Below are positions 8 through 63,221 of a stretch of 64,000 bases of DNA, piece by piece (the first letter of the stretch is position 1; the number at the start of each line of letters is the position of its first letter). Made by a program: the position numbers and the translations under genes. The stretch lies in the NCBI GenBank assembly GCA_050942955.1, contig JBMNOG010000002.1, positions 32,762-96,761 of the forward strand, given 5' to 3'. The notes under the pieces are model-generated. The model was not told the origin of the DNA. It made no database searches and was given only the letters and a program-made list of their open reading frames with translations. Source of the DNA: Patescibacteria group bacterium. GTDB taxonomy: Bacteria; Patescibacteriota; Microgenomatia; UBA1400; UBA1449.

Positions 8-1159
8 ATGAAGATTATTGCTCCAGTAAGAGAGTGGAGTATGGGACGAGATGAAGAACTTATCTATGCTAAAAAACACGGCATTCCGGTTAAACAAACG
101 AGTAATTGCCCGTACTCTTGGGATGACAACATGTGGGGTGTAACAGGCGAATCAGGGGAGATTGAAGATCCCAAGCTGGTTCCACCCCTTGATAAAATTC
201 TGCAAGTTTGTAAACCGGTTGAGCAAGCTCTTGATAAACCAGAAACAATTGAACTGGAGTTTGTTAAAGGTCTTCCGATTGCAGTTAACGGCAAACAAAT
301 GAAGTTAACTACGCTTATCGCTGAGCTTAATCAAATAGGCGCCAGACACGGAGTAGGAGTAACAGTCCACATTGAAGACAGGATTGTTGGGTTAAAAGTA
401 AGAGGAGTCTACGAAGCACCGGCAGCAGAAATTATTATTCAAGCCCACCAGAATTTGGAAAAATTCGTTTCAACCAGGATTGAAAATGAGTTCAAAACAC
501 TGGTTGACCAGAAGTTTGCCTACCTTTGTTACGGTGCACTGTGGCATGAACCGACGATGAAACACTTACAAGCATACCTGGACTCGGTCAATGAAAAAGT
601 AAACGGCAAGGTAACGGTTAAACTCTACAAAGGCAGAGCTGATGTAATGGCCATGGAAACGCCGCAGTCTTTATTTGATGAGAAAATGGCTACCTTTATG
701 AAATCAGAGGCATTTAATCAGAATGCTGCTCCGGGTTTTATTGAACTCTGGACATTGCAAATGAAAATGGCCAAACAGGCAATCCCTCAGGTCCTCTTGT
801 CCCTAAGAGATGAGGATAAACCCAAACTCCTGCCTTCAATTAAAAAACTCTATAAAGCTAACAACACCCATTTTTTTGCAACCAAAAACACACATGACTT
901 TCTTAAAAAGAATGGGGTTGAGTCACAGTTTGTCTATAAAGTCAGTGAAGACGGTCAACCAAATATCCATACGCTCTTGCAGCAAAGACGCTTTGACTTA
1001 ATTATTAACACCCCAACCCCGGGGAAAAAGAATACAACACTTCACGATGCTGAAGTAATTAAGCAGTTTGCTATGGATAAAGGCATTAAGCTTATTACTG
1101 AAATTGATGTTGCTGAAGGCATTTTAGAAAAAATGGCAAGTGTAAAAAGGAGATCATAA
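8..1159 (+). CDS. argG: Argininosuccinate synthase (C-terminal two-thirds) fused to a C-terminal MGS-like domain. The gene is 5'-truncated by the window edge; the frame is open up to position 2.
   Basis: Residues 1-265 align along their length with Thermus-type ArgG (PVREWSMGRDEELIYAKKHGIPV, PYSWDDN...GEIEDP, GARHGVGVTVHIEDRIVGLKVRGVYEAPAAEII). Residues ~266-383 match the MGS-like allosteric domain of the CarB C-terminus (LLSLRDEDK, ATKNT, LIINTPTPGKK). Confidence 0.8.
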   Translation: MKIIAPVREWSMGRDEELIYAKKHGIPVKQTSNCPYSWDDNMWGVTGESGEIEDPKLVPPLDKILQVCKPVEQALDKPETIELEFVKGLPIAVNGKQMKLTTLIAELNQIGARHGVGVTVHIEDRIVGLKVRGVYEAPAAEIIIQAHQNLEKFVSTRIENEFKTLVDQKFAYLCYGALWHEPTMKHLQAYLDSVNEKVNGKVTVKLYKGRADVMAMETPQSLFDEKMATFMKSEAFNQNAAPGFIELWTLQMKMAKQAIPQVLLSLRDEDKPKLLPSIKKLYKANNTHFFATKNTHDFLKKNGVESQFVYKVSEDGQPNIHTLLQQRRFDLIINTPTPGKKNTTLHDAEVIKQFAMDKGIKLITEIDVAEGILEKMASVKRRS

Positions 1160-2139
1160 TGGCTAACAGTAACAATAATTGGGATTTGAAGCAGGTTCTC
1201 TTAGAAAAAATCGGCAGTCTAGGCGGCTTTGTTAACTGCCATGCCCATTTTGATAGAGCCTATACGATTAGCCCAGAAACTTTTCCTCTAGCCAATGAGC
1301 ATCTGCATAAAAAATGGAAGTTAGTGGACAAACTTAAACGTACATCTTCCCAGGAGGAGTATGAGAGGAGAATTAGTTTTGCGGTTGAGAAAATGATTGC
1401 CCAGGGAGTCAGGATTGCCTGCAGTTTTATAGATATTGACGAAGCCGTAGGGCTTAAAGCTATTAAAGCTGCTCACAATATCAGAAAAAGATATAAAGAT
1501 AAAATCAGCCTTCTTTTTGCCAGCCAAACGTTAAAAGGAGTCCTCTTAAAAGAAGCGAGAGAGTGGTTTGAAAAGGGTTTGCCCTACATTGATATTATTG
1601 GGGGGTTGCCTAAAACGGATGCTCCTCACCAGGACAAACATATCGATATGCTTTTGCAGTATGCCAAACAAACTGGAAAAAGGGTACATATGCACGTTGA
1701 CCAGGAGAACACAGCTTCTGAGAAAGAAACTGAGCTTCTGGCAAAAAAAGCAGTTAAACACGGGTTGGAAGGCAGAGTTAACGCAGTTCATTGTATCTCC
1801 CTAGCCGCTCACCCCAAAGACTACCGCAGTAAAGTCTACAAACTCTTAACCAAAGCTGGCGTTGGCGTTGTTACCTGTCCTTTGGCGTGGCTTGCTTCCA
1901 AACGGCATGAAGAACTTACACCCACCCATAACTCTATTGCACCTGTTGAAGAAATGGTAGCAGCCGGAGTTACGGTTGGATTAGGAGTTGATAACATCGC
2001 TGATGTCTATATGCCCTTTGCCGACGGAGATATCTGGACAGAGACACGGGCACTGCTTGAAGCCTGCCGCTTTTATGATATAGATAATATAGTCGCTATT
2101 GCTTCAACAAACGGCAGAAAAATACTTGGAGTAAGCTAA
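1159..2139 (+). CDS. Metal-dependent amidohydrolase (TIM-barrel; cytosine-deaminase / type II dihydroorotase-like). Possibly the dihydroorotase of this cluster.
   Basis: HxH metal-ligand motif in NCHAHFDRAYT, a second ligand block HMHVDQE, HCISL, and a GVDNIAD aspartate block. Its start overlaps the argG stop (TAATG) and it ends 1 nt before pyrD. It lines up block-by-block with E. coli type II PyrC (DWHLHLRDG, VHGEV, HITT, GTDSAP). Confidence 0.55.
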   Translation: MANSNNNWDLKQVLLEKIGSLGGFVNCHAHFDRAYTISPETFPLANEHLHKKWKLVDKLKRTSSQEEYERRISFAVEKMIAQGVRIACSFIDIDEAVGLKAIKAAHNIRKRYKDKISLLFASQTLKGVLLKEAREWFEKGLPYIDIIGGLPKTDAPHQDKHIDMLLQYAKQTGKRVHMHVDQENTASEKETELLAKKAVKHGLEGRVNAVHCISLAAHPKDYRSKVYKLLTKAGVGVVTCPLAWLASKRHEELTPTHNSIAPVEEMVAAGVTVGLGVDNIADVYMPFADGDIWTETRALLEACRFYDIDNIVAIASTNGRKILGVS

Positions 2140-2140
2140 T

Positions 2141-3061
2141 ATGCTAAAAAACTCAATTGACCTTTCAACTTCAATTAAAACGCTTAAACTCAAAAACCCG
2201 ACGATCTTAGCTTCAGGCATTCTAGGCATTTACTGTGACTCCTTGCACAGAGTAGCAAAGGGCGGAGCTGGGGCAGTCACCGTTAAATCATTAACAACCG
2301 AACCACGAGCAGGACACAATAACCCTATATTAGTCGAAGTTGAAGGCGGCTTTTTAAATGCCGTTGGCTATGCTAATAAAGGGATTGATAAAGGAGTGGA
2401 AGAGTTTAGAAAGTGGAATGGAGAGATACCAATGATCGGCAGCGTTGTTGCCGGCAACCCGGAAGAGTTTGCCGCCTTAGCGCAAAAGATGTGCCAAGCA
2501 CCAATCCAAGCACTCGAACTGGCACTATCCTGTCCACATACACCCGGGTATGGGTTACTGGCAGGCCAAGGGACACCGGAAGCAACCAAGCAGATTACTA
2601 AAGCGGTCAGAAAGGTAACAAATCTTCCCTTAATCATCAAACTCTCACCGTCAGTTCCTGCAATTGGTGAAATTGTCAAAGCCGCTGAAGCAGCCGGAGC
2701 AGATGCGATTAACATGGGTAATACTCACGGCCCGGGCATGAAGATTGACATCAACCGGGCTGAGCCCATTCTGGACTTTAAGTTCGGAGGAATGAGCGGC
2801 CCGGCAATAAAGCCTATTATGATACGGTCTGTTTTTGATATCTATAAAGCTGTCAAAATACCGATTATTGCTACCGGCGGAATAACCACAGGCGAAGATA
2901 TGATTGAAGCCTTTATGGCCGGAGCCTCAGCCGTTGGTATTGGCACCGCCATTCACTATCGGGGAACTGATGTGTTTGCCAAAGTCTGTCAGGAAGCCTC
3001 TGCCTGGATGCAAAAAAACAAAGTTAAAACCATTAGTAGCCTAGTTGGTCTTGCTCACTGA
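2141..3061 (+). CDS. pyrD: Dihydroorotate dehydrogenase, catalytic subunit (class 1B)
   Basis: NPTILASGILG, NAVGYANKG, GGITTGEDMIEAFMAGASAVGIGTA. Class 1B length (306 aa) and a PyrK partner downstream. Confidence 0.9.
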   Translation: MLKNSIDLSTSIKTLKLKNPTILASGILGIYCDSLHRVAKGGAGAVTVKSLTTEPRAGHNNPILVEVEGGFLNAVGYANKGIDKGVEEFRKWNGEIPMIGSVVAGNPEEFAALAQKMCQAPIQALELALSCPHTPGYGLLAGQGTPEATKQITKAVRKVTNLPLIIKLSPSVPAIGEIVKAAEAAGADAINMGNTHGPGMKIDINRAEPILDFKFGGMSGPAIKPIMIRSVFDIYKAVKIPIIATGGITTGEDMIEAFMAGASAVGIGTAIHYRGTDVFAKVCQEASAWMQKNKVKTISSLVGLAH

Positions 3062-3323
3062 CAAATCTGTTTGAAAATATGTTTTTAAATTCGCTTTTTG
3101 AAGTGGAGCTATCAAGAAATGATTTTATGAATTCTTTAACTTTTAAAGTCAAAAACTGTTTGAGTAAAAATTTCTGTAGACATGCAAAATTTTTACGAGT
3201 TTTTTTTACGGATAGGTATGAAATAGAATCATTTCCTGAAGATCACTTCATTAAGCGAGAATTTTCTTTTGTATTTTTCTTTGTTTGTACAAAGAAAAAT
3301 ACTTATTAATACAGGAAATTATT

Positions 3324-4070
3324 ATGAAAAAATCTTCTATTCAAAATACCTACCAAACCGCTGTTATCACTAAAATCGAACAGGAAACTCCTATTGTTAA
3401 AAGTTTTTACCTGGATACCAAAGTAAAAGCCAAACCCGGGCAGTATGTCATGGTCTGGATTCCGAGAGTTAATGAAAAGCCCTTTGGTGTCGCCTCAACA
3501 AATCCCTTTATGCTTTCGATCGCTAATATCGGCTCATTTACCCAAAAGGTGCATGAACTTAAAGTCGGGGATAAGCTTAGTTGGCGTGGGCCGTACGGCA
3601 CTTCATTTACACTCAAGGGCGAAAAGTTGCTCATCGTTGCCGGTGGGTACGGGGTTGTACCTCTGCACTTACTCGCTTCCCAGGTAGTTCCAGAGAAACG
3701 TAAAAATATCACCGTCATCATCGGCGCTAAAACAGCCAAGCACTTACCCTTTGTGGACAAGTTTAAGGAACTGGGTTGCAAAGTTAAAGTTGCAACAGAT
3801 GACGGTTCTAAGGGTTTTAAGGGCTTCACCACTAAACTAGCTCAAGAACTTCTTGGTAAAGAAACCTTTGACCAAGCCTATACCTGCGGTCCAAACATTA
3901 TGATGGAAACGCTAGCCCAGGTTTGCCATAAGCACGACCTCCCCTGCCAGGTAAGTTTTGAGGCCTTTTTCAAGTGTGGGGGATTAGGACTGTGTGGCGA
4001 GTGCAACTACAAAGGTCATCTCGTTTGCCAGGAAGGGCCTGTTTTTGACTCCAGTTTATTACTAAAGTAA
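3324..4070 (+). CDS. pyrK: Dihydroorotate dehydrogenase electron-transfer subunit (FAD/NAD-binding, 2Fe-2S)
   Basis: FAD-binding fold and a C-terminal Cys cluster (CGGLGLCGECNYKGHLVCQEG). Start chosen at the ATG at 3324, preceded by AGGAAA; the track ORF starts earlier at 3285. Confidence 0.85.
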   Translation: MKKSSIQNTYQTAVITKIEQETPIVKSFYLDTKVKAKPGQYVMVWIPRVNEKPFGVASTNPFMLSIANIGSFTQKVHELKVGDKLSWRGPYGTSFTLKGEKLLIVAGGYGVVPLHLLASQVVPEKRKNITVIIGAKTAKHLPFVDKFKELGCKVKVATDDGSKGFKGFTTKLAQELLGKETFDQAYTCGPNIMMETLAQVCHKHDLPCQVSFEAFFKCGGLGLCGECNYKGHLVCQEGPVFDSSLLLK

Positions 4071-4082
4071 AAAGGAGAGCCT

Positions 4083-4727
4083 ATGGACTACCAAAAGGCG
4101 GTTGCAAAGAGTTTACTTACTATCGGAGCAGTTGGTTTTGCTCCCCAAAACCCTATTACCTTTAAATCAGGCATTAAGTCTCCGGTCTACGTTGATAACC
4201 GTAAGTTTCCCTTTCACCCTTCAGAGTGGAAAACAGTTATCCAGGGTTTTAAGGATCTTATAAAAGAAAAAGGGTTAGAGCTTGACGTTATTGCCGGAGT
4301 TGAAGCTGCCGGTATTCCTCATAGTGCCGCTTTAGGATTTTTTATGGATAAACCCTCTGTGTTTGTCAGAAAAAAAGCCAAAGACCATGGCACAAAGAGT
4401 ATGGTCGAAGGCGGTAAGATTGAAGGTTTGAGAGTTATCCTTATCGAAGATTTAGTTACTACCGGAGGTAGTAGCCTGGCAAGTATCGAATCTCTCAGAA
4501 AAGAAGGAGCAGTTATTTCTGACTGCCTAATAATTGTTAGCTACGGCTTTAGGCAGGCAAAAGAGGCTTTTGCTAAAGCCAACGTAAATCTTCACACCCT
4601 AACCACGTTCCCAATAATCCTTGAAGAAGCACTTGCTATGGGTAAGTTTAGTAAAGAAGAAAAAGAGATTATTGAAGACTGGCTTGCCGAACCCTACGGC
4701 TGGGCGAAACGCCAGGGATTGGAGTAG
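4083..4727 (+). CDS. pyrE: Orotate phosphoribosyltransferase
   Basis: FKSGIKSPVYVDNR; PRPP-binding loop VILIEDLVTTGGS. Confidence 0.9.
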   Translation: MDYQKAVAKSLLTIGAVGFAPQNPITFKSGIKSPVYVDNRKFPFHPSEWKTVIQGFKDLIKEKGLELDVIAGVEAAGIPHSAALGFFMDKPSVFVRKKAKDHGTKSMVEGGKIEGLRVILIEDLVTTGGSSLASIESLRKEGAVISDCLIIVSYGFRQAKEAFAKANVNLHTLTTFPIILEEALAMGKFSKEEKEIIEDWLAEPYGWAKRQGLE

Positions 4728-4728
4728 T

Positions 4729-5532
4729 ATGGATTTTTTCACAAAACTTAACAAGCGTATCGATAAAACCAACTCTCTTCTCTGTGTCGGACTTGACAGC
4801 GATACTGAAAACTTGCCAGCAAAATTCAAGAACTTGGACTTTCCTCAGCTTGAGTTTAATAAGTTCATTATTAGTGAAACTAATCCTTATGTTTGTGCGT
4901 ATAAACCAAACACTGCTTTTTATGAAAGCAGGGGAGAGCAGGGAGTTCACGAGCTAAAGTCAACATGCGATTTTCTGTCCCAAAACTTTCCGGATATCCC
5001 GATTATTTTAGACGCAAAAAGGGGCGATATCGGCAATACCAATAAGGCTTATGCCAAGTATATTTTTGAGTATTTAAAAGTCGATGCCGTCACTCTTCAT
5101 CCATATTTAGGTAAAGAATCTTTGGAAAACTTTTTAGCATACAAAGATAAGGGATTAATAATTCTTTGTAAAACTTCAAATCCCGGAGCTGGTGAGTTCC
5201 AAGACTTGGTGTGCAATGGTAAACCGCTTTGGCAAATAGTTGCTCAAAAGGTTAGCCAGGAATGGAATACAAGCAAAAACTGTGGATTAGTAGTGGGCGC
5301 CACCTATCCGGAAGAACTCAAAGCTGTCAGAAAACTTGTCGAAGATATGACTATCCTTGTTCCGGGGATTGGTAGCCAGGGTGGAGACTTAGAAGCTGTT
5401 TTAAGAGTAGGGCTTAATTCTCAAAAAAGAGGGGCACTTATCAACGCCAGCCGAAGCATTATCTTTGCTCCAAGTCCCGCAACAGAAGCCAAAGTTTTGA
5501 GAAACATAATTAGTAATTTTATTGGAAGCTAA
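4729..5532 (+). CDS. pyrF: Orotidine-5'-phosphate decarboxylase (long type 2)
   Basis: LCVGLDSD, ILDAKRGDIGNT. The ATG at 4729 sits 1 nt after the pyrE TAG; the track ORF starts upstream at 4621, inside pyrE. Confidence 0.85.
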   Translation: MDFFTKLNKRIDKTNSLLCVGLDSDTENLPAKFKNLDFPQLEFNKFIISETNPYVCAYKPNTAFYESRGEQGVHELKSTCDFLSQNFPDIPIILDAKRGDIGNTNKAYAKYIFEYLKVDAVTLHPYLGKESLENFLAYKDKGLIILCKTSNPGAGEFQDLVCNGKPLWQIVAQKVSQEWNTSKNCGLVVGATYPEELKAVRKLVEDMTILVPGIGSQGGDLEAVLRVGLNSQKRGALINASRSIIFAPSPATEAKVLRNIISNFIGS

Positions 5533-5621
5533 ACAAGTGTATAAGTAATATTCATTGAATTATGTTACAAACTCTGATAATGTATACCACTATTATTAAT
5601 AACTAAGAGTAAAAACATCTT

Positions 5622-6518
5622 ATGCAAATTTTCTCAGGCTCAACTAACCCCTCGTTAGCACGCAAAATTGCCAGAAATCTAGATGTTCCAATGGGAAAAG
5701 TTGAGCTTTCCGTTTTTCCTAACAATGAACTCCGTGTTTGGGTAAAAGAGAAAAAAGTCGATAAAGATGTTGCTGTTGTCCAATCATTTGCCGGAGATCC
5801 AAATAAGGCAATTATTGAGTTTTGCCTGTTAATTGACGCTCTAAGAAGATGTGGCGCTCATCATATTACCGCAGTTATTCCCTGGATGGGCTACTGTATT
5901 CAGGATAAAATCTTCAGACCTGGAGAAGCCTTATCCGCTAAGGTAGTTGCCAACATTATCCAATCTGTAAATCCAAACAGAATTATTACAGTCGATTTGC
6001 ATAATGAATCCATTCAAGGTTTCTTTTCAGTGCCTATTACCCACCTTTCGGCAAATCCCTTGTTTATAGATCTTATAAAGCAGAAAAAGGCAGTGGACTG
6101 CATCGTTTCTCCTGATGTGGGAGCCTTAAAAGAAACCACCAGGATCGCCTATGAACTCAACTTACCTATGGTGGTTGTTAATAAGAAACGAGACCTTAAA
6201 ACCGGAGAGGTTTCGATTATAAGTATCAGCGGCGATTGCAAAGATAAGCGAGCTCTTATTATGGATGACTTTATCTCTACCGGAGGAACACTCATTCAAA
6301 CCATCAATTTTCTCAAAAAAAATAAAGCTAAAAAAACAATAGTAGCAGCTACACACCATCTTTTTGTAGAAGGAACTCAGCAAAAACTAGCAAAGAGTTC
6401 TCTTAATGAGCTTTATATAACCGACACTGTAGATATGCCGCAATTAGACACTAAGGTTTCACTTGAAACAAACATTATCAGTGTTTCAGGCATTATTGCC
6501 GAGGCTCTCGCAGAGTAA
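5622..6518 (+). CDS. prs: Ribose-phosphate pyrophosphokinase (PRPP synthetase)
   Basis: MQIFSGSTNPSLARKIA...FPNNELRV; PRPP loop DDFISTGGT. Confidence 0.9.
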   Translation: MQIFSGSTNPSLARKIARNLDVPMGKVELSVFPNNELRVWVKEKKVDKDVAVVQSFAGDPNKAIIEFCLLIDALRRCGAHHITAVIPWMGYCIQDKIFRPGEALSAKVVANIIQSVNPNRIITVDLHNESIQGFFSVPITHLSANPLFIDLIKQKKAVDCIVSPDVGALKETTRIAYELNLPMVVVNKKRDLKTGEVSIISISGDCKDKRALIMDDFISTGGTLIQTINFLKKNKAKKTIVAATHHLFVEGTQQKLAKSSLNELYITDTVDMPQLDTKVSLETNIISVSGIIAEALAE

Positions 6519-6565
6519 CTAAAAGCTGACTTTACATTAGAAATGAGTGTATGAGATAATACCTT

Positions 6566-8257
6566 ATGCATTCATTCTGTCAAAAACTTAAATCTTCAAA
6601 AACTAGATTTATCTTTGTTTCCGGCGGTGTTATTTCCGGTCTTGGTAAGGGCACAACTGCTGCATCATTAGCTGCACTTCTTGAAGGTTGTGGTCTAAAA
6701 GTCTTTCCGATAAAAGTTGACATGTACCTTAATATTGATGCTGGAACAATGAATCCCTTAGAGCATGGGGAAACATTTGTTACTGCAGACGCCTTGGAGT
6801 GCGATCAGGATATAGGAACATATGAACGTTTCTTGCACCGGGATTTAAACCGTCAAAATTATTTTACTGCCGGCCAGATTTACCAATCACTTTTAAACAA
6901 AGAAAGACAGCTTAAGTTCAACGGCGCCTGCGTAGAGGCTTTTCCCCATATACCATTAGAAATCATTGAACATATTAACCGCTTCCCTGATGATACCGAT
7001 ATTGTCATAGTAGAGTATGGCGGAACTGTTGGGGAATATCAAAATGAGGCCTTTTTTGAAGCAGCCCGAATGATGGTTGCTTGTAGCCGTCAGCATGTTT
7101 GTTTTGTCCACATCGGCTATATCCTTCAGCCACCCTCGCTCGGAGAAATGAAGTCTAAACCTCTGCAAATGTCAGTACGGATGTTAAATGAGCTGGGTAT
7201 TTTCCCAGATCTCGTCATTTGCCGCAGTGAAAATCCGATAGACAAACCAAGAATTGCAAAAATTGCCACTGCCGCTGGTCTCTCTGAAAATGAAGTTTTC
7301 TCTTGCCCTAATGTTGATTCGATTTACAAGCTCCCAAAAATATTAAAAGAACAGAATGTTCTTGAACCAATTCTCAGAAAACTACATTTAGAAACCCCAT
7401 TATGCAACATACCCAAATGGGAAAATCTTAGTACAAAACTTGCAAACTTAAAAAATAAAGTCCGCATTTCAGTTGTAGCCAAGTACTACAACAGCGGCCA
7501 GTTTAGTTTAGCAGATTCCTATATTTCAGTTCTTGAAGCCATTAAGCACGCGGCCTGGTCACTTGGTGTAGATCCGGAAATCGCCTGGTTTGACTCAGAA
7601 TCTCTGGAAAAAAACCCTAACAATCTCGAAAAACTTAAAAATTCTGATGCCGTCATTGTTCCGCAAGGCTGGGGGAGCAGGGGATCAGAAGGTAAAATCA
7701 GAGCTATTCAGTTCGCCAGAGAATCAAAAACTCCATATCTTGGACTATGCTTTGGGATGCAGATGGCAACAGTTGAGTTTGGTAGAAATGTAGTCGGTCT
7801 TGATAGAGCCAACTCCGAAGAGGCTGATGCACACACCCCTCATCCCGTAATCCATATTATGAAAGAACAAAAAGAACTTCTTAAAAAACAGCAGTATGGT
7901 GGAACAATTAGATTAGGCGCCTGGCCATGTAAGATTACAAAGGATTCTCTTATCGCTACATTGTATGCCGAAAACGGTTGGCTGCCGGAGAACTCAACAA
8001 TAGACGAAAGACACCGGCACCGCTATGAGTTTAACAATGCATACAGAGAACAGTACAAAGCTAAGGGGATGCACTTTACCGGCCTTTCACCTGACGGGAC
8101 ATTAGTTGAGGCAGTAGAGTTGGATCAAAGTTTGCATCCGTTTTTTATTGGTACACAGTTTCATCCTGAGCTCATTTCCCGCCCATTTACACCTCATCCA
8201 TTATTTATTGGACTTATTAAAGCAGCCTTAGAACACCAGAAAAAGAGAGACAATTAA
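6566..8257 (+). CDS. pyrG: CTP synthase
   Basis: IFVSGGVISGLGKGTTAASL, NIDAGTMNPLEHGETFVT, and a C-terminal GATase domain (LGLCFGMQ, HRHRYEFN). Confidence 0.92.
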   Translation: MHSFCQKLKSSKTRFIFVSGGVISGLGKGTTAASLAALLEGCGLKVFPIKVDMYLNIDAGTMNPLEHGETFVTADALECDQDIGTYERFLHRDLNRQNYFTAGQIYQSLLNKERQLKFNGACVEAFPHIPLEIIEHINRFPDDTDIVIVEYGGTVGEYQNEAFFEAARMMVACSRQHVCFVHIGYILQPPSLGEMKSKPLQMSVRMLNELGIFPDLVICRSENPIDKPRIAKIATAAGLSENEVFSCPNVDSIYKLPKILKEQNVLEPILRKLHLETPLCNIPKWENLSTKLANLKNKVRISVVAKYYNSGQFSLADSYISVLEAIKHAAWSLGVDPEIAWFDSESLEKNPNNLEKLKNSDAVIVPQGWGSRGSEGKIRAIQFARESKTPYLGLCFGMQMATVEFGRNVVGLDRANSEEADAHTPHPVIHIMKEQKELLKKQQYGGTIRLGAWPCKITKDSLIATLYAENGWLPENSTIDERHRHRYEFNNAYREQYKAKGMHFTGLSPDGTLVEAVELDQSLHPFFIGTQFHPELISRPFTPHPLFIGLIKAALEHQKKRDN

Positions 8258-20796: not shown

Positions 20797-20970
20797 CGTC
20801 CTGCCTATTATTAAGGTAAAAATATCCTGCTAAACGAACCAATTTCTATTACTTTATTCTTACTGGTTTTTCATTTTCCTGTAAAAGTAATGCAATAAAC
20901 TCTGACGAAGTGAAGTGCCCCTCATGCATGTTTGAGGGAAACGCCAAATAGAGAGGAGGTGAGTAGAAAA

Positions 20971-22206
20971 ATGAAAAAACTTTTTAGAAAGCTGGCTGCT
21001 GCCGCAGCACTAAGCTCCATGCTACTTCAAGTCTTTGCCTCTATTGCTTTAGCTGAAACTATTGAAATTTCCGGTAACGGCGCTGATTCTGAGAACGATG
21101 CGATGGTAAATACTACCAAACAAACAACTGTCGTCCAAAACAACACTGCTGAGATCTTTAACGATATTGAAGCTGAGGCTGAGACAGGCGAAAACGAGGC
21201 TAATGACAATACCGGGGGTGATACGCTTATCATGACTGGTAATGCTACGACATCAGTAGATGTTGCAACAAGAGTTAATCTCAATGCGATAGAAGACAGA
21301 GTTGAGACACAGAGAGACGACACCAGTATTCTGATTTCCGGTAACGGAGCAGATTCTGACAATGACGTTGATCTGAATTCTCTCGAAGAAACAGAAATTT
21401 TCCAGGATAACTTTGCTTACATTGAAAACGATATTGAAGCTGAGGCTGAGACAGGCGAAAACGAGGCCAACCGTAATACTGGCGGCGAAACCGCTGTTAT
21501 TACCGGCCATGCCACTACCGAAGTCGAAGTTTCTAATGTAGCTAACGCCAACCTGGTTGATCTCAGAGGTCCAACAAACGGAACAGTCCCAACCTACGAT
21601 ATCAGGATTGTCGGCAATGGTGCTAATAGCAGGACAAATGTCGACGTTAACCGGCAAAAATTCCTGACAATTGTTCAGGATAACTTTGCAGATATCTTCA
21701 ACTATGTTGAGGTTGAAGCAGAGACCGGTGAAAACGAGGCCAATGATAATACAGGCGGGGACGTCATGATTGACACAGGTATGGCTCAAGCTTCTGCAAC
21801 TGTAGAAAACTGGGCAAACCTGAACGTGGCTACTACCAATGGATGGCTGCCGGAGGTTCTGGCAAAAATTTATGGGAATGGAGCTTTATCCCGAAACGAT
21901 GTTGATGTTTGCTTCTTAGATGAAGTCGCCGTTTTCCAGGGAGATGACGGAGAGAGTGGAAACGTTCTCTTCCTTGAGAATGATGTTGATAACGAACCCG
22001 AAAGCGGTGATAACGAGGCAAACAGAAATACGTATGGCGAAGGTGATCCACTCGTGATTACCGGCCATGCTCTATCCGATGTCCTAGTAAGGAACACGGC
22101 TAACGCCAATTACTATGGCACCCGTCCTGCTATGGACTGGTTTGATAATTTTGAATTGAACTTTTCGTTCAATTTAGGAGGTCTCGTAGGTAGGTTACTT
22201 AGGTAA
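20971..22206 (+). CDS. Secreted protein of four tandem ~85-90-aa repeats (novel repeat family)
   Basis: Signal peptide KLAAAAALSSMLLQVFASIALA. Repeats share GNGA(D/N)S...(V/F)Q(D/N)N(F/T)A.I.N.(I/V)E(A/V)EAETGENEAN(D/R)NTGG....TG.A...V...AN(A/L)N. A 35-nt exact DNA repeat occurs at 21165 and 21426. RBS GAGAGGAGG. Confidence 0.7.
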   Translation: MKKLFRKLAAAAALSSMLLQVFASIALAETIEISGNGADSENDAMVNTTKQTTVVQNNTAEIFNDIEAEAETGENEANDNTGGDTLIMTGNATTSVDVATRVNLNAIEDRVETQRDDTSILISGNGADSDNDVDLNSLEETEIFQDNFAYIENDIEAEAETGENEANRNTGGETAVITGHATTEVEVSNVANANLVDLRGPTNGTVPTYDIRIVGNGANSRTNVDVNRQKFLTIVQDNFADIFNYVEVEAETGENEANDNTGGDVMIDTGMAQASATVENWANLNVATTNGWLPEVLAKIYGNGALSRNDVDVCFLDEVAVFQGDDGESGNVLFLENDVDNEPESGDNEANRNTYGEGDPLVITGHALSDVLVRNTANANYYGTRPAMDWFDNFELNFSFNLGGLVGRLLR

Positions 22207-22222
22207 CACATTGTAGTCAGAT

Positions 22223-22259
22223 GGGGAGTTTCCTGGTCGCACTTCAACAGAAACTCCCC
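22223..22259 (+). other. Perfect 10-bp inverted repeat (GGGGAGTTTC...GAAACTCCCC) with a 17-nt loop, between the two surface-protein genes
   Basis: Read directly. It is followed by an A-rich tract rather than a U-tract, so it is not a classical terminator. Confidence 0.4.
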
Positions 22260-22293
22260 GTCACTACACATAAAAAAACAAAAAGAAAGATGT

Positions 22294-24570
22294 ATGAAAG
22301 TCGCTACGATTAAAAAAACAATAATAACTTTTTTTCTCCTTTATTGGAGTGCATTCTCAATAGTCCCAGTTAGAGCTCTTGAAGCCCCGTCCTCACCCAG
22401 TGCTCCTTCTGCACCTGCATCACCTTCATCAGAAACTTCTGACCCAAATGACTCAAGTGAAAGTACAGACACACCCTCTGCTCCAGAAACCCCATCAGCC
22501 CCTTCGCTAAATGAATCTAATGAGGAAGATACAGCTGAAGAAGAATCCCAATCACCAGCCCCTTCACCAACACCTGAACCAGCACAGGCAGAAACTCAAT
22601 CAAACACAAGTAATAGTAGTACTGACAGTCAAGGTAGTTCTACCAACAGCACAGCTGATAATGTCGTTAACGACGGGAACACCGGGGAAACTGTTATCAA
22701 AACCGGAGATGTTACCACTACAGGGACAGCCGCAACAATCGCTAACACTAATACAAACACTCAAAGTGGAACATCAGCTTTAAATGGAGATATTGTGGTA
22801 ATAACTGAAGATAATGGTTCTGGTTCCATTAATAATACTGATTATGAAGTAATAGATGATTCTCAAACTCTTCAGGATAATAACGCAGCAGTTGGCAATA
22901 ACCTTAATCTTGATTCTGTCTCAGGCCACAACTCAGCTTCAAAAAACCTTGGCGACTCGATGATTATTTCAGGGGATGCTAATGTCAGCGGTACGGCAGT
23001 CACTGCAGTTAATACTAATGTAGACGGTGTTGGTTTAGCCCACTTCACCATTGCCGATGATCACAAAGGTGACATTATTCTAGATTTTAGCAGCTTAGTC
23101 CCCCAGGAAGGCACTGGCTCGGCCGTAACTACCACCTCTGGTAACGGAAGTAACTCTGAGAATGACAGTTCCCTTACGTTTCTATCAGACAGCGATACAT
23201 TCCAAACCAATGACGCCGCAGTTGGTAATAACTTAACTCTTGTGGCTGACAGCGGCCTGAATACTGCCAGTTACAATACCGGCGGCGACTCAATTATCAA
23301 AACAGGCGATGCCAATGTTTCAGCCAATGCTATTACCTTTGCTAACAATAATTTCTCAGGCAATGTTATTTACGCAGTTGTCGATATTTTTGGCAGCCTT
23401 GAGGGTGATATTATTTTACCTCTGGAAGCTTTTAATGCTTTCCTGTCAGCAACTTCTTCTGCCAGCCTTGCAGCTGCAACAACTGGAAATGGCAGTAATT
23501 CCACCAATACAACAGAATTTGCTGACACTGAAACTTCAACCCTAGTCCAGGATAATAATGCCGAGATAGCTAACGACATTACTGCAGAGGCTACAACCGG
23601 AGATAACCAAACCAGTAACAACACAGGCGGCAACTCCATTGTTAAAACAGGCAATGCTGATACTGATGTAAATGTCTTAAACATAGCAAACAATAATCTT
23701 GAAGGCGGCAACTGGTGGTTAGTGCTGGTTAATAAAGCCGGACAGTGGATCGGTAAAATCTTTGGAATGAAAGATGGCGCTGTTGCCGCCGGTTCAGAAG
23801 GTTTAGAGGTTACAGTTAACGAAGACGGTTCAGTCAACGCCACTAATGGCTCCCAACCCGCAACAGTAACCACTACAGAAAACGGCGCTAACTCTAAAAA
23901 TGTAACTACTATTACCCAAACAGAAAACAGCGAAACATTCCAAACAAATAACGCTGCTATTAACAACAGCTTGAATCTGACAGCAAATACCGGTGGTAAC
24001 ACCGCTAGCTATAACACAGGTGGCGACTCAACTATTATAACCGGGGATGCTAAGATTGTGGCTAATATTGTTAACTTTGTAAACAACAACATCGCCACTG
24101 GCGGCAAACTGATCGTCACAGTAATCAATGTCTTTGATAAATGGTTCGGGGATTTTCTGCCCCCTGGAGTAACAAAACCCACCGAAGAAGACCCGGGTGG
24201 GAGTAACGATCCCGGTACGGGTGGGGGAGGAGTTAATCCAACCCAGGAAAATACAAACAACAATAGCACTTCCGTTTCAGAAGATAGCAGTCAGGAAAGT
24301 AGCTCTACTCAAAGCACGGAAAATACTACAAGTACCACAGGTAAAGTTTTAAGCTACTTTAAATCTAACCGCAACCAACAAGTAGTCGAGCAAACAAATG
24401 ACAATCAGGATAGTAAAGTTTTAGGCGAATACTTCAGTAACACCAATTCCAAACAAAAGGTTGATGTCAATCTGGCCTGGCTCCTTCTGGGAATACCTGG
24501 ACTGGGGGTAGCTCTACTTATCAAACGGAGGCGAAAAATTGCCAACTGGATACGCTTCAACCTCTTTTAG
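22294..24570 (+). CDS. Large (758-aa) secreted/cell-surface protein. It has a signal peptide, a Ser/Pro/Thr/Glu-rich linker, at least five copies of the same repeat family as the upstream gene, and a C-terminal hydrophobic segment followed by a basic tail.
   Basis: Repeats such as FQTNDAAVGNNLTLVADSGLNTASYNTGGDSIIKTGDANVSANAITFANNN. C-terminus LAWLLLGIPGLGVALLIKRRRKIANWIRFNLF. Confidence 0.7.
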   Translation: MKVATIKKTIITFFLLYWSAFSIVPVRALEAPSSPSAPSAPASPSSETSDPNDSSESTDTPSAPETPSAPSLNESNEEDTAEEESQSPAPSPTPEPAQAETQSNTSNSSTDSQGSSTNSTADNVVNDGNTGETVIKTGDVTTTGTAATIANTNTNTQSGTSALNGDIVVITEDNGSGSINNTDYEVIDDSQTLQDNNAAVGNNLNLDSVSGHNSASKNLGDSMIISGDANVSGTAVTAVNTNVDGVGLAHFTIADDHKGDIILDFSSLVPQEGTGSAVTTTSGNGSNSENDSSLTFLSDSDTFQTNDAAVGNNLTLVADSGLNTASYNTGGDSIIKTGDANVSANAITFANNNFSGNVIYAVVDIFGSLEGDIILPLEAFNAFLSATSSASLAAATTGNGSNSTNTTEFADTETSTLVQDNNAEIANDITAEATTGDNQTSNNTGGNSIVKTGNADTDVNVLNIANNNLEGGNWWLVLVNKAGQWIGKIFGMKDGAVAAGSEGLEVTVNEDGSVNATNGSQPATVTTTENGANSKNVTTITQTENSETFQTNNAAINNSLNLTANTGGNTASYNTGGDSTIITGDAKIVANIVNFVNNNIATGGKLIVTVINVFDKWFGDFLPPGVTKPTEEDPGGSNDPGTGGGGVNPTQENTNNNSTSVSEDSSQESSSTQSTENTTSTTGKVLSYFKSNRNQQVVEQTNDNQDSKVLGEYFSNTNSKQKVDVNLAWLLLGIPGLGVALLIKRRRKIANWIRFNLF

Positions 24571-58177: not shown

Positions 58178-58290
58178 TATACAAGGAAGATAAAGTAATA
58201 TTTTAGATGAACAAAAATTTTCGCCTTAGCATAAAGAGGTGCTACTGTCTTGATTCTTCTTTTGTATATACGTTACACTTTCCTAAACCC

Positions 58291-58656
58291 ATGCACGAAC
58301 TGCCAATTACTCAAGCTTTACTCAAAAAAGTATTGGAGGTTGCCGAAGAAAACAAGTTGATCCGGGTAACCAAAGTTAATGTTATTCTTGGCAGACTTTC
58401 TGGATTTGTTGATGATTCTATTGATTTATACTGGAATATCCTAACTGAACATACGATTGCTGCAGGCTCAAAAGTAATGATTAAGCGAACACCAAATAAA
58501 ATAAAGTGCTTGAAATGTGGTTATCAAAAGCTAACTACTCTAAGATTAGATACTTGCCCCAAATGTAGTAGTTTTAAGCTGGTAATCGTGGGGGGCGATG
58601 AACTTGTGTTAAAAAATATTGAAGGAGAAAATGACAAAAACAATCAAAGTAAATGA
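58291..58656 (+). CDS. hypA: Hydrogenase/urease nickel-insertion metallochaperone HypA
   Basis: MHELPITQALL (Ni-binding MHE), and a Zn site with two CxxC pairs (CLKCGY...CPKCSS). Confidence 0.8.
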   Translation: MHELPITQALLKKVLEVAEENKLIRVTKVNVILGRLSGFVDDSIDLYWNILTEHTIAAGSKVMIKRTPNKIKCLKCGYQKLTTLRLDTCPKCSSFKLVIVGGDELVLKNIEGENDKNNQSK

Positions 58657-59305
58657 AAACATTCTTTCGGAAAACGACAAACTTGCCCTAAAAATACGAA
58701 AAAAACTAAATGAAAACAATATTTTTTCTATAAATGTAATGGCTTCTCCAGGGGCAGGGAAGACTAGTTTAATTAATCAAACAATTGAGAACTTGAAAAG
58801 AAAGCACCGGGTTGCGGTTATAGATGGGGATGTTGTTGATGTGGATTTAAAGAAAATGGCACACCACGGAGTTCCGACTGTTTTAGCAAATACTGGCGGA
58901 GCTTGCCATATGGACGCTGTTATGATGGAAAAGGCCATTGCTTCCCTTCCTCTTTCTGAAATAGATCTACTTATCGTTGAAAATGTCGGTAACCTTATTT
59001 GTCCTGCCAGTTTTGACTTAGGTACCCATAAGAGTGTAGTTATTGCCAGTGTTCCTGAGGGAGATGATAAACCATATAAATATCCGGCAATGTTTAAAGG
59101 TGCAGATATACTTATACTTAACAAAGCTGACTACCTGAAACATGAAAATTTCGATATTGAGTATTTCCTAAACGGAGTTAAACAACTTAATGACAAACTG
59201 GAGTTCTTCATGCTTTCCTGTAAAACCTTGAAAGGAATAGACCAATGGTTGAATTGGGTAGAGAAGCATCTACTGCAAGAGTTCAAACCGAACCGGAACT
59301 CTTAA
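58619..59305 (+). CDS. hypB: Nickel-dependent GTPase HypB (no His-rich N-terminal stretch)
   Basis: SPGAGKTSL (P-loop), metal-site GGACHMDA, ENVGNLICP, NKAD. It overlaps hypA by 38 nt, or 26 nt if it starts at the second Met (58631). Confidence 0.8.
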   Translation: MKEKMTKTIKVNENILSENDKLALKIRKKLNENNIFSINVMASPGAGKTSLINQTIENLKRKHRVAVIDGDVVDVDLKKMAHHGVPTVLANTGGACHMDAVMMEKAIASLPLSEIDLLIVENVGNLICPASFDLGTHKSVVIASVPEGDDKPYKYPAMFKGADILILNKADYLKHENFDIEYFLNGVKQLNDKLEFFMLSCKTLKGIDQWLNWVEKHLLQEFKPNRNS

Positions 59306-60027: not shown

Positions 60028-61056
60028 GTGAATTGTATGTTTCAACCCAAATACACGCTCACAAACAAACTTTTCTCAAACGTTGCTACCTCTGAAAGGC
60101 TCTATGGCCAAATAGAAGCTCTAAGGCTGCCTGAAAAACTACACCTAAACCTTAAGCGCAAAAATTTAGTTGAGTCTGCATACTATTCAAATAAAATTGA
60201 AGGCAACCCGATGACCCTACCGGAAGTAACCAACCTGCTTCTGGATTCACGAGTTCCTGTTAATCGAGATGAAAAAGAGGTGGCCAATTACTTTGATATG
60301 CTGGAAAAACTGAATGAGTATACGGAAACATCTATAACTACCGATTTTGTCGCAAATATCCACGGCAGACTTTTTACAAACATTCACGAAAAGGCGGGTG
60401 AGTTCAGGAATGAAATTGTGGCTGTCGGCCGGTATACCGGGGAAGGGGATAATGTCTCATTTAAAGTAAAGCATTTGCCGCCGTTTCATGCCCAATCTGA
60501 GATAAGGCAAGCCTTAGGTGAACTTCTTGACTGGGTTAATCACCAGCAAGAGCTGCCTATAGTTATAAAGGCTGGCATTTTTCATCATGAGTTTGTCTAT
60601 ATCCATCCGTTTGAAGATGGTAACGGCCGGGTTTGCCGGATTCTGTCAGCGCTTCAATTTCTTAAAGCCAACTACCGCATCAATAAATACTTTATTTTAG
60701 ACGACTACTACGATCTTGACCGCATCCAGTATTCAGATATGCTTCATAGTGCTGATGAAGGTGATAAAACTCAGTGGCTTGAGTACTTCTCTGACGGAGT
60801 GAAATACTCGCTACAAAGCGCTCTAGCAAAAGCCCAGAATGCCGTACGGACTTTGAAAATCGCTGAAAGACCAACCGCTAAGGAACGAGTGGTATTAACC
60901 ATGATGACCAAGCAGCCGGAGATTACTTCAAAAGAAGTTTCCCAAAACTTGGGTGTCTCAAGACAACAAGCTCATAATTTATTAAGCTCCCTGGTTGAAA
61001 AAGGGTTAGTTGAGCGCAAAGGTACTACCAAATCCAGCTACTATATGCTGAAATAG
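60028..61056 (+). CDS. fic: Fic-family protein (class II, intrinsic N-terminal inhibitory motif) with a C-terminal winged-helix domain
   Basis: Fic motif HPFEDGNGRVCR; inhibitory (S/T)xxxE(G/N) as SNKIEG near residue 55; C-terminal HTH-like ITSKEVSQNLGVSRQQAHNLLSSLVEKG. GTG start at 60028 (alternative ATG at 60037). Confidence 0.85.
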   Translation: MNCMFQPKYTLTNKLFSNVATSERLYGQIEALRLPEKLHLNLKRKNLVESAYYSNKIEGNPMTLPEVTNLLLDSRVPVNRDEKEVANYFDMLEKLNEYTETSITTDFVANIHGRLFTNIHEKAGEFRNEIVAVGRYTGEGDNVSFKVKHLPPFHAQSEIRQALGELLDWVNHQQELPIVIKAGIFHHEFVYIHPFEDGNGRVCRILSALQFLKANYRINKYFILDDYYDLDRIQYSDMLHSADEGDKTQWLEYFSDGVKYSLQSALAKAQNAVRTLKIAERPTAKERVVLTMMTKQPEITSKEVSQNLGVSRQQAHNLLSSLVEKGLVERKGTTKSSYYMLK

Positions 61057-61184: not shown

Positions 61185-61952
61185 TTAGAGAGTATTGTGT
61201 TCTAGAATAGTGTTCCCCGATATTTCCACCCACATTCGAGCTTCATTGTTATCATAATTGCTTTCCCATATTTTTTTATCTTCATTAACAATCGTTCGAA
61301 TAAGGTATCTTCCGTCCGGAATGGAGCTTATATTAAGTTCCTGGCCTTCAACCGTAGCTCTATATGTGTCTGACCAACCTGGAGATATTCCCTGAATATC
61401 AGAATTGCACCCAGTATACTGCTGGGTCTTTGGCGCATTTTCAACTTCTAAATTATACGCTTCTTCGTCCCAAATACAAAAACTCATTTTATTAGTAGTA
61501 GTCAAGAGTTCTATAGGTTTTCCATTTTTGTCATAATTCCAAAGCTGGAACTCAACATAATCTTCGATATGCCAGTGACCATGAGACGGATGAAGAACAA
61601 ATGTTCCGATAAATTTTTCTTCAACTGTCCCATTCTCCCTATAAATTTTCTGAAAAGCTTGGGTACGCCAGTTTTCAAAATCACGCTCACCTCTAATTTC
61701 TAACGAGCCTTTTCCAAGATTGATAAAGGTTGTGCTAAAACGAAGCTTTCTTCCGTTTAATAGCGGTTCAATATACAGTTCTTTTGGTGGCAAAACTACT
61801 AAGTCGGGCAAAAGCAGAACTAGATTGCCTTGTTCTTTTAAAGAATCAGAAGGTTTCTGTTGTTGGGTAAAACGCTTATCTGCTCGAGAAAACTGCACCA
61901 CTGCAAAGACAAGACTGACTACAAAACTTACTAGCAAAATAAATCTTTTCAT
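61185..61952 (-). CDS. Secreted lysyl oxidase (LOX) catalytic-domain homolog (copper/LTQ amine oxidase family)
   Basis: Signal peptide. The His cluster HPSHGHWHIEDY parallels the LOX Cu site (WEWHSCHQHYH). KMSFCIWDE parallels KASFCLEDT (the LTQ Lys), and QGISPGWSDTYRATVEGQELNISSIPDGRYLIRTIVN...SNYDNNEARMWVEI parallels [37 protein letters not shown]...SDYTNNVVRCDI (the LTQ Tyr). Confidence 0.7.
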   Translation of the reverse strand: MKRFILLVSFVVSLVFAVVQFSRADKRFTQQQKPSDSLKEQGNLVLLLPDLVVLPPKELYIEPLLNGRKLRFSTTFINLGKGSLEIRGERDFENWRTQAFQKIYRENGTVEEKFIGTFVLHPSHGHWHIEDYVEFQLWNYDKNGKPIELLTTTNKMSFCIWDEEAYNLEVENAPKTQQYTGCNSDIQGISPGWSDTYRATVEGQELNISSIPDGRYLIRTIVNEDKKIWESNYDNNEARMWVEISGNTILEHNTL

Positions 61953-62123
61953 ACCAAAAGCTTATTAAGGGACTATTAGGTTTTAGTATTGGTTGTGTAA
62001 TAGTTAAATAAGGGTAACGATACCTTTTAACTTTTTTTTACAGAATATTTATTCTGATATCTTACTTACTCCTTTTTCACATATTTCTTATACAAAAATG
62101 AATAATCAATACACAAACGCTAT

Positions 62124-63221
62124 ATGAGCAAAACAGTACTGCTAACTCTAGTCATAGTTCTAGTAGGTATTGGAATTTTCTTCCTTTATAGTAGGGGTTT
62201 GCTCAGCAACAGAAATCAACTTGGCACCTCCGGAACAGCTAATTCTTCTCAAGAAACTGAAGGGGTAACCGTAGTTGCCGAAAATTTGGAAGTTCCCTGG
62301 GCAATTGCTTTTCTTCCCAATCAAGACCTACTGGTTACAGAACGGCCAGGAAGAGTAAGGCGAGTTTCTCAGGATGGAACAGTTACAACTGTGGCAGAAA
62401 TAGATGAAGTCGAGCACGTCGGAGAAGGTGGTCTTCTTGGCATTACCCTTCATCCTGATTTTGCAGAAAATAACTTGCTGTACGTTTACTACACTTATGA
62501 AAGTGCGGAGGATCAAACACTCAATAGGGTAGTGCGCTACGGGTATGAAAATACTTCCCTTTCAAATCCACAAGTGATTGTGGACCAAATCCCGGGTGCT
62601 TCAAACCACAATGGCGGCAGAATTGCCTTTGGTCCCGACAACTTTCTCTATATCACCACCGGAGATGCTCAAGATCCCTCTTTAGCCCAGGATACCGATT
62701 CTTTAGCCGGAAAGATTTTGCGGGTAACAGATGAAGGAGAACCAGCCCCGGGAAATCCGTATAATAACGCCGTCTATTCCTATGGCCATAGAAATCCGCA
62801 GGGGTTGGCATGGGACGGAGAGCAACTGTGGGCAACAGAACATGGACCAAACGCCCGCGATGAACTGAATAGAATTGAGGCAGGCGAAAACTATGGCTGG
62901 CCGGAAATTGTGGAAGATGAACAAAGAGAAGGGATGCAGATGGCTATTATAAATAGCGGGAACAGCACTTGGGCACCGTCAGGACTAGCTTTTTCAGATG
63001 GCATTTTTTATTTTTCCGGCTTACGGGGAAATGCCTTGTTTGCCTTTAACCCTCAATCAAACAAACTGCAGCAGTATTTAAGAAACGAGTATGGCAGGCT
63101 GCGGGAAGCGACTATCGGACCGAATGGATTTTTGTACGTTACCACCAGCAACCGAGACGGAAGAGGAAGACCAAATCAAGGAGACGATAAAATTATACGC
63201 ATTAATCCCAACTCATTGTAG
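62124..63221 (+). CDS. PQQ-dependent soluble sugar (glucose/sorbosone) dehydrogenase-like beta-propeller protein, membrane-anchored
   Basis: N-terminal TM segment; LEVPWAIAFLPNQDLLVTERPGRV, GEGGLLGITLHPDF, HNGGRIAFGPD, GHRNPQGLAWD, ENYGWPE. Confidence 0.8.
   Translation: MSKTVLLTLVIVLVGIGIFFLYSRGLLSNRNQLGTSGTANSSQETEGVTVVAENLEVPWAIAFLPNQDLLVTERPGRVRRVSQDGTVTTVAEIDEVEHVGEGGLLGITLHPDFAENNLLYVYYTYESAEDQTLNRVVRYGYENTSLSNPQVIVDQIPGASNHNGGRIAFGPDNFLYITTGDAQDPSLAQDTDSLAGKILRVTDEGEPAPGNPYNNAVYSYGHRNPQGLAWDGEQLWATEHGPNARDELNRIEAGENYGWPEIVEDEQREGMQMAIINSGNSTWAPSGLAFSDGIFYFSGLRGNALFAFNPQSNKLQQYLRNEYGRLREATIGPNGFLYVTTSNRDGRGRPNQGDDKIIRINPNSL

Follow-up and report, generated by a model that had tools for sequence, protein, structure and literature searches.

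A lysyl oxidase-family gene recurrently linked to a PQQ-dependent sugar dehydrogenase gene in Patescibacteria and other prokaryotes

A 64,000-nucleotide stretch of contig JBMNOG010000002.1 from a Patescibacteria group bacterium (the window, taken at its full length) carries, at positions 61185-63221, a gene for a lysyl oxidase (LOX)-family protein next to a gene for a pyrroloquinoline quinone (PQQ)-dependent sugar dehydrogenase of the GSDH family. Genes of these two families lie side by side in other genomes as well, and the link between them is non-random, facultative, and asymmetric. The window LOX is probably an exported copper amine oxidase, with a lysine tyrosylquinone (LTQ) cofactor, that acts alongside GSDH on a substrate common to both outside the cytoplasm. 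As a protein, the LOX is nothing new: the family is known in prokaryotes, and the exact protein is already annotated at NCBI. What appears to be unreported in the literature we searched is the recurrent linkage of LOX to GSDH, joined in some lineages by peptidases. A check of the open reading frames (ORFs) of the window found both genes intact, transcribed divergently with a 171-bp spacer between them:

61185 to 61952, minus strand: LOX-family gene, 255 aa, stop codon included in the coordinates; assigned by ORF and PF01186, and identical to the NCBI 'lysyl oxidase family protein'
61953 to 62123, no strand: intergenic region common to LOX and GSDH, 171 bp, AT-rich, divergent
62124 to 63221, plus strand: PQQ-dependent aldose sugar dehydrogenase (GSDH/Asd family), 365 aa; assigned by PF07995, 3A9G, 2ISM, 3DAS, and 2G8S

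The lysyl oxidase-family protein

By every computationally testable feature of the family, the 255-aa ORF encodes a LOX-family protein, as an earlier note made from the letters of this DNA had claimed. The Pfam model PF01186 (Lysyl_oxidase) matches it with 61.3 bits (gathering cut-off 20.4, E=1.3e-16), though only over model positions 78-201 of 204, the C-terminal two thirds of the domain. In its N-terminal half, the window domain has diverged too far for the Pfam model to match, and NCBIfam offers no LOX model. Human LOXL2 (5ZE3) is the sole significant sequence match in the PDB, by phmmer (E=4e-9) and by a family profile (E=1.3e-20). It is also the sole significant PDB match that Foldseek returns (E=2e-10, 236 aligned columns, rmsd 3.5 Å, TM score 0.58 when normalized on the full query including the transmembrane helix) for an AlphaFold (AF2) model built from 32 homologs, whose mean pLDDT is 91.7. 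The invariant LPD motif, the RFSTTF.N.G.G segment, and the 236-column structural alignment together show a complete LOX catalytic domain.

The identical 255-aa protein, in the same gene order, occurs in two independent assemblies (ERR10905741 and SRR31066179), which makes a frameshift artifact, named in the earlier note as a result that would undo its reading, unlikely; NCBI and JGI records contain the same protein. We also weighed contamination and a eukaryotic origin and rejected both, since the gene lies on a coherent 99-kb bacterial contig of ~40% GC that was recovered in independent samples, and the nearest relatives of both LOX and GSDH are Patescibacteria metagenome-assembled genomes (MAGs).

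The anatomy of the protein, read from the model, the homologs, and the alignment to LOXL2, is as follows:

61875 to 61952, minus strand: N-terminal signal peptide or signal anchor, aa 1-26; AF2 helix 2-26 and hydrophobicity
61812 to 61874, minus strand: low-confidence linker, possibly a tether or pro-segment, aa 27-47; pLDDT below 50 for aa 29-35, poorly conserved among 32 homologs
61197 to 61811, minus strand: LOX catalytic beta-domain, aa 48-252, beginning at the invariant LPD; AF2 strands 51-252, Foldseek 5ZE3
61569 to 61592, minus strand: His cluster HPSHGHWH with predicted copper ligands H124/H126/H128; aligned to LOXL2 HDCHRHYH
61488 to 61490, minus strand: Lys155, predicted LTQ lysine; aligned to the lysine of LOXL2 KASFC
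61362 to 61364, minus strand: Tyr197, predicted LTQ tyrosine; aligned to the tyrosine of LOXL2 DMYR
61407 to 61478, minus strand: Cys159-Cys182 segment, probable disulfide; the only two Cys in the LOX protein, invariant

The copper-binding His, the LTQ Lys, and the Tyr that had been proposed from the letters alone all align with LOXL2: HPSHGHWH with HDCHRHYH, NKMSFC with HKASFC, and GWSDTYR with GCWDMYR. These residues and the Cys pair do not vary among 32 diverse homologs. Across 163 LOX loci, H124 and H126 are kept in all 163 and H128 in 162, K155 in 161, and Y197 in all 163, with C159 and C182 essentially invariant; the His motif belonged to the pattern used to search for loci, so its conservation is partly by construction, whereas K155, Y197, C159, and C182 lay outside the pattern. 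Invariance of the catalytic residues argues for selection for catalysis. It also bears on the idea that the domain is inactive and forms a structural or adhesive, CARDB-like surface beta-sandwich: weak secondary CARDB fold matches (E ~1e-3) and faint CARDB Pfam matches in two homologs point in that direction, but for every catalytic residue to stay invariant across 163 loci at ~30-60% identity is unexpected of a purely structural role, and we regard this idea as highly improbable. The two cysteines probably form a conserved disulfide; C159 aligns with the cysteine of LOXL2 SFC, and C182 falls one column off the cysteine of LOXL2 YEC.

The N-terminus consists of MKR, a 16-residue apolar run (aa 4-19), and SRA/D, and is predicted as a helix. 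Sequence and model suggest either a Sec signal peptide or an anchor that stays uncleaved, the two not being told apart; the N-terminal hydrophobic helix behind the earlier claim of a signal peptide is real. Across the family, the median hydrophobic run is 17.5 residues long, and a small-x-small motif follows it in 14 of the 32 members.

With LOXL2 and the animal LOX and LOXL enzymes, the window protein has in common the fold, the HxHxH copper site, the Lys and Tyr of LTQ, at least one Cys pair in equivalent positions, and a location predicted to be extracellular. It is, however, only ~23% identical to LOXL2, is devoid of SRCR domains and of an animal-type propeptide, and has a single Cys pair; the paper on 5ZE3 reportedly describes five disulfides. 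Unlike the animal enzymes, it has no collagen or elastin substrate in its own organism. The topaquinone (TPQ) copper amine oxidases and the lysine epsilon-oxidase LodA, which uses cysteine tryptophylquinone (CTQ), are likewise extracytoplasmic quinone-cofactor amine oxidases that release H2O2, but their folds and cofactor chemistry are unrelated to those of LOX, and neither matched the window LOX in Pfam, PDB sequence, or fold searches. The prokaryotic single-domain LOX proteins (HTU-LOX of Haloterrigena turkmenica, those of Nitrosopumilus, Streptomyces, and other actinobacteria, and a short group with Parcubacteria) show the same order of N-terminal hydrophobic segment, linker, and LOX domain, and the same conserved His, Lys, and Tyr (PMC4448552, PMC6452851). 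The window LOX is 30-36% identical to the Nitrosopumilus and Actinomycetota copies, including that of N. salarius BD31, a lineage already aligned in Figure 5 of PMC6452851; unlike the characterized HTU-LOX, it falls in a subclade centered on Patescibacteria and Chloroflexota.

Prokaryotic LOX homologs had been called rare in the earlier note, which is true only in a relative sense. A word-indexed search returned 55 homologs, nearly all of 243-290 aa and of the same architecture, with PF01186 found in 55 of 55; a profile search of 1.84 billion representatives at 50% identity returned 8,790 clusters at E<=1e-3 and 1,615 at E<=1e-30; and relatives occur at 265 loci in GTDB species representatives. 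The nearest come from Patescibacteria (Shapiro-, Collier-, Morani-, WWE3, and Saccharibacteria) and more distant ones from Chloroflexota, Actinomycetota, Nitrosopumilus, Verrucomicrobia, and others. Two loci, L002 and L043, cluster with Patescibacteria but carry MAG labels of Pseudomonadales (a 3.6-kb contig) and Bdellovibrionales, which may reflect mis-binning.

The novelty that the earlier note implied for the LOX was overstated, since the NCBI annotation and two papers precede it. A 2015 survey traced LOX to five phyla of bacteria and two groups of archaea; most of the proteins have a single domain, with a signal peptide or transmembrane segment in some and not in others (PMC4448552). In 2019, the archaeal HTU-LOX was shown to be an amine oxidase sensitive to beta-aminopropionitrile (BAPN) after removal of its hydrophobic N-terminus, 'a few samples from Parcubacteria' appeared among the short LOXes of Figure 6, and the function of prokaryotic LOX was termed enigmatic or cryptic (PMC6452851). 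Our literature search on LOX in Patescibacteria found nothing relevant.

The neighboring sugar dehydrogenase and its cofactor

The neighbor had been described as an anchored PQQ sugar dehydrogenase, and this description stands. PF07995 matches it with 285 bits (cut-off 25, E=1.1e-84), its N-terminus is a 20-residue apolar segment, and NCBI names the exact protein, from a Patescibacteria-group MAG, 'PQQ-dependent sugar dehydrogenase'. Its best PDB match is 3A9G (E=8e-83 over residues 48-360), and the values range to 2e-41 across 2ISM, 3DAS, and 2G8S. Its features are these:

62124 to 62192, plus strand: N-terminal membrane anchor or signal; 20-residue apolar run
62265 to 63203, plus strand: six-bladed beta-propeller catalytic domain; residue-by-residue alignment to 3A9G and 2ISM
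62607 to 62621, plus strand: motif HNGGR, by alignment
62784 to 62804, plus strand: motif GHRNPQG, by alignment
62838 to 62849, plus strand: motif EHGP, by alignment
63150 to 63167, plus strand: motif NRDGRG, by alignment

HNGGR (aa 162-166) and GHRNPQG (aa 221-227) are identical in 3A9G and conserved in 2ISM, and we take the His of HNGGR to be the catalytic one, and the Arg, Asn, and Gln of GHRNPQG to be those that bind PQQ, in correspondence with H144 and R228/N229/Q231 of the soluble glucose dehydrogenase (sGDH) of Acinetobacter. The window GSDH aligns end to end with the PQQ aldose dehydrogenases of Pyrobaculum aerophilum (Asd, 3A9G/3A9H), Thermus (2ISM), Streptomyces (3DAS), and E. coli (YliI/Asd, 2G8S); it differs from the known Asd enzymes in having a predicted N-terminal membrane anchor in place of a periplasmic signal peptide. 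Against TIGR03606, the NCBIfam model of the sGDH-B subfamily, it scores 155 bits, below the cut-off of 434.55, which places it with Asd/YliI-like rather than Acinetobacter sGDH-like enzymes. It contains zero cysteines, and the PQQ-6beta-Ln proteins from the candidate phyla radiation (CPR) all have one or two Cys pairs (bioRxiv 10.64898/2026.07.10.737718), so it seems to belong to a different, Asd/YliI-like subgroup.

The PQQ is probably scavenged from other cells. No PqqB/C/D/E-type biosynthesis family matched among the scanned ORFs of the window (most of those of at least 120 aa), the window being part of the genome, and the organism, like E. coli, probably does not synthesize PQQ. The cofactor scavenging that the earlier note had suggested is thus reasonable, but for CPR bacteria devoid of pqq genes it has already been proposed in general form: 247 CPR genomes encode six-bladed PQQ propellers, none has pqq genes, and the PQQ is probably host-derived (bioRxiv 10.64898/2026.07.10.737718). 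A close homolog of the window GSDH (65% identity; L171:1-3975) adjoins a 1444-aa protein with faint multicopper-oxidase matches, another copper-protein neighbor of this dehydrogenase family, and an FAD/NAD-binding reductase.

Linkage of LOX and GSDH genes

We gathered 164 distinct LOX loci, ~126 of which have enough flanking sequence to be informative; ORF calls in high-GC loci were passed through a GC3 filter, and a GSDH gene at a gap of at most 500 bp from LOX was counted as adjacent. Unbiased ORF clustering puts GSDH at the top of the recurrent neighbor families of LOX. It is adjacent in 10 of the ~126 informative loci, where 0.1-0.65 are expected, and it lies at 0.9-4.3 kb in five further loci, a Nitrosopumilus locus (4.3 kb) among them. 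The distance profile supplies an internal control: GSDH density is 28 per Mb within 1.6 kb of LOX, 5 per Mb between 1.6 and 5 kb, and 0 in 0.51 Mb at 5-10 kb, and even at the upper 95% limit of this background, 10 adjacencies have P ~2e-9. These counts lend statistical support to the significance that the earlier note had seen in the adjacency.

Adjacent loci fall in at least six clusters of a neighbor-joining LOX tree: core Patescibacteria, a Moraniibacteriota-like cluster, two metagenomic groups, Actinomycetota, and a Brevibacillus MAG. The orientation of the two genes varies, being divergent in the window and in L010, convergent in L083, L085, and L031, and co-directional in five loci. Among the co-directional pairs, gaps of 4 bp (L131) and 13 bp (L049) and an overlap (L143) suggest, as far as gene spacing can, co-transcription. 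The LOX variants at L131:1008-2252 and L143:545-1786 are longer (413-414 aa), with a ~200-aa N-terminal extension unmatched in Pfam. In the closest relatives, the LOX-GSDH pair is kept while all other neighbors differ. On the window, at 60028-61056 and convergent to LOX, lies a gene for a Fic-domain protein with a C-terminal winged helix (MarR/IclR/TrmB-like). When Fic, Gmad2, HypA, HypB, and HflX were considered as LOX partners, none recurred in 80 genome loci.

Several points weigh against an active LOX that shares a role with GSDH. First, the pairing is facultative: an adjacent GSDH is found in ~8% of informative LOX loci and in 4 of the 19 closest relatives. Second, it is not reciprocal: GSDH is far commoner than LOX, with more than 8,000 Patescibacteria matches at E<1e-40, and of four close GSDH homologs sampled (57-65% identity), none has a LOX neighbor, a result on which we rejected an obligate two-gene system. 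Third, the window genes are divergent and hence not an operon, and a scan of the LOX-GSDH region found neither a consensus promoter nor a terminator in the 171-bp spacer, and promoter-like sites that were rarer than in shuffled sequence, which leaves co-regulation neither supported nor contradicted. Fourth, a background GSDH density was assumed for the first expectation, although the distance profile gives an internal control, and the loci counted are not phylogenetically independent. Fifth, LOX activity in Patescibacteria is predicted from sequence and fold; LOX also requires O2, whereas the way of life ascribed to many Patescibacteria is anaerobic fermentation. Genes for rubrerythrin, a peroxiredoxin-like protein, and MsrB do lie in the window, which is consistent with some exposure to oxidants.

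Some of these points would suit a LOX that works by itself, as a promiscuous amine oxidase that scavenges nitrogen or detoxifies amines or cationic antibiotics, with a mechanistically unconnected GSDH whose gene shares with it a niche of exported accessory genes that are swapped and kept as a group. HTU-LOX offers a precedent, having a relaxed specificity that includes aminoglycosides and polymyxin, and a modest role in nitrogen scavenging has been suggested for it (PMC6452851); that most LOX loci have no GSDH, that LOX is missing beside all four close GSDH homologs, and that the window genes are divergent would then be expected. A niche held in common accounts less well for an adjacency at least 15-fold over the upper-bound background in at least six clades across phyla, for gaps and overlaps so short in some pairs that they suggest co-transcription, or for a pair that persists while the other neighbors all differ between loci. 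We consider independent action a possible but clearly less likely explanation than joint action.

A second way of linking the genes would make LOX the redox partner of GSDH, re-oxidizing PQQH2 either directly or via a cupredoxin and passing electrons to O2, and so acting as a terminal oxidase in a cell without a respiratory chain. Other six-bladed PQQ propellers do adjoin their cytochrome acceptors (bioRxiv 10.64898/2026.07.10.737718), no cytochrome was found among the scanned window genes, and one relative has a membrane-anchored cupredoxin, a candidate electron acceptor, directly beside GSDH (L085:10125-10631). No LOX-family enzyme is known in such a role, however, amine oxidation already accounts for the strict conservation of the Lys and Tyr of LTQ, and most GSDH genes have no LOX beside them, so we think it very improbable.

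In the literature that we searched, we found neither the neighborhood of LOX with GSDH and peptidases nor any paper that joins 'lysyl oxidase' and 'sorbosone dehydrogenase'. A 2026 survey of the genomic contexts of PQQ-6beta proteins describes cytochromes and CAZyme clusters and mentions no amine oxidases (bioRxiv 10.64898/2026.07.10.737718).

Envelope genes near LOX and a proposed role

Two kinds of peptidase, both membrane-anchored, recur beside LOX within the Patescibacteria-like LOX clade. Peptidase_C39_2, fused to TPR repeats or Big_5 domains, adjoins it in L085, L088, L089, L092, L094, L099, and L105, and Peptidase_M23 in L006, L010, L043, L101, and L102; GSDH is present as well in two loci of the first kind (L085 and L094) and two of the second (L010 and L043). 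Other envelope genes near LOX encode a penicillin-binding protein (PBP; L085), a LysM protein (L088), NAGPA (L089), and LytR_cpsA_psr with VanW (L081). The C39_2 genes lie at L085:6776-7933, L088:6739-7770, L089:4886-6004, and L094:4611-6620, and the one in L089 overlaps the LOX start. We speculate, by analogy, that the C39_2 peptidase may process the LOX pro-segment; in animals, BMP-1 activates pro-LOX. M23 is a peptidoglycan endopeptidase family, and the loci with it fall in a Moraniibacteriota-like subclade. In L010, L043, and L102 the M23 genes (L010:10651-11397, L043:8155-8880) are convergent to LOX, at 24-39 bp from the match to it; in L006 the gene lies 193 bp upstream of LOX, and in L101 the match overlaps LOX.

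Going beyond these observations to cofactor formation, activity, substrate, and the coupling between LOX and GSDH, we infer the following course. LOX would be exported via Sec and either tethered to the membrane or released. Its beta-domain would bind copper through H124, H126, and H128 and process its own K155 and Y197 into LTQ, and the enzyme would then oxidize primary amines, R-CH2-NH2 (peptidyl lysine or others), to aldehydes, using O2 and giving off NH3 and H2O2. The membrane-anchored GSDH would oxidize the reducing ends of sugars with PQQ that probably comes from other cells. Because the genes are linked in evolution, the two enzymes most likely share one process, which would take place outside the cytoplasm on material bearing both amines and sugars. 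Cross-linking or modification of surface or host amines and sugars, at which the earlier note had hinted, would be one possible outcome. The M23 or C39-like peptidases found in the clusters of relatives make cell-wall or glycopeptide material the foremost candidate substrate. A search of the window found neither a C39_2 nor an M23 peptidase, which counts against extending this to the window itself, and the cell-wall interpretation is therefore borrowed from the relatives.

A stronger version takes LOX, GSDH, and the peptidases together as a module for the cell wall or the host surface, by which an episymbiont remodels its own wall, or attaches to or feeds on that of its host. The M23 and C39-like peptidases would open peptidoglycan or surface glycopeptides, LOX would oxidize lysine-type amines to aldehydes for cross-links or attachment, or for NH3, and GSDH would oxidize the reducing ends of glycans. 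The seven distinct loci with C39_2 and five with M23, some with GSDH too, agree with this, as do the PBP, LysM, NAGPA, LytR_cpsA_psr, and VanW genes and the N-terminal hydrophobic segments on all components. Yet the substrate is a conjecture, hydrolysis of peptidoglycan is not established for C39-like peptidases, the link to peptidases is seen in a single clade and that to GSDH across phyla, and the window is without such a peptidase; we hold this version to be unlikely. Its more specific form, in which LOX, GSDH, and C39-like or M23 peptidases make up an unrecognized extracytoplasmic module of Patescibacteria that supplies aldehydes for attachment to, or breakdown of, the host wall in episymbionts, is a somewhat longer shot again.

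The rest of the window (~40% GC) has the gene content of a small genome: pyrimidine biosynthesis, CTP synthase, L19, PGI, two-component systems, LiaF/PspC, BipA, HflX, and HypA/HypB. Rfam and tRNA scans of the window gave no match. At 8-8257 lies a near-complete run for de novo pyrimidine and nucleotide synthesis (an amidohydrolase/dihydroorotase-like protein, dihydroorotate dehydrogenase, a PyrK-like protein, orotate phosphoribosyltransferase, orotidine monophosphate decarboxylase, phosphoribosyl pyrophosphate synthase, and CTP synthase), the first ORF of which joins Arginosuc_syn_C to an MGS-like domain; Patescibacteria are usually described as being without de novo nucleotide synthesis, which would make this run unusual. 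The HypA and HypB nickel metallochaperone genes overlap at 58207-59305, with no hydrogenase or urease among the scanned window genes, and two adjacent large ORFs at 20932-24570 (424 and 758 aa) match nothing in Pfam at E<=1e-5.

As a lead on the function of lysyl oxidases in prokaryotes, the neighborhood of LOX and GSDH is real, if modest. GSDH and the peptidases as neighbors narrow the candidate substrates of LOX to envelope or glycopeptide-type material, and the module of LOX, GSDH, and peptidases, if it is real, would give these enzymes a first physiological role. For the organism, the window LOX adds a predicted surface enzyme, dependent on O2 and producing H2O2, to an ultra-small symbiont lineage that is usually regarded as fermentative.

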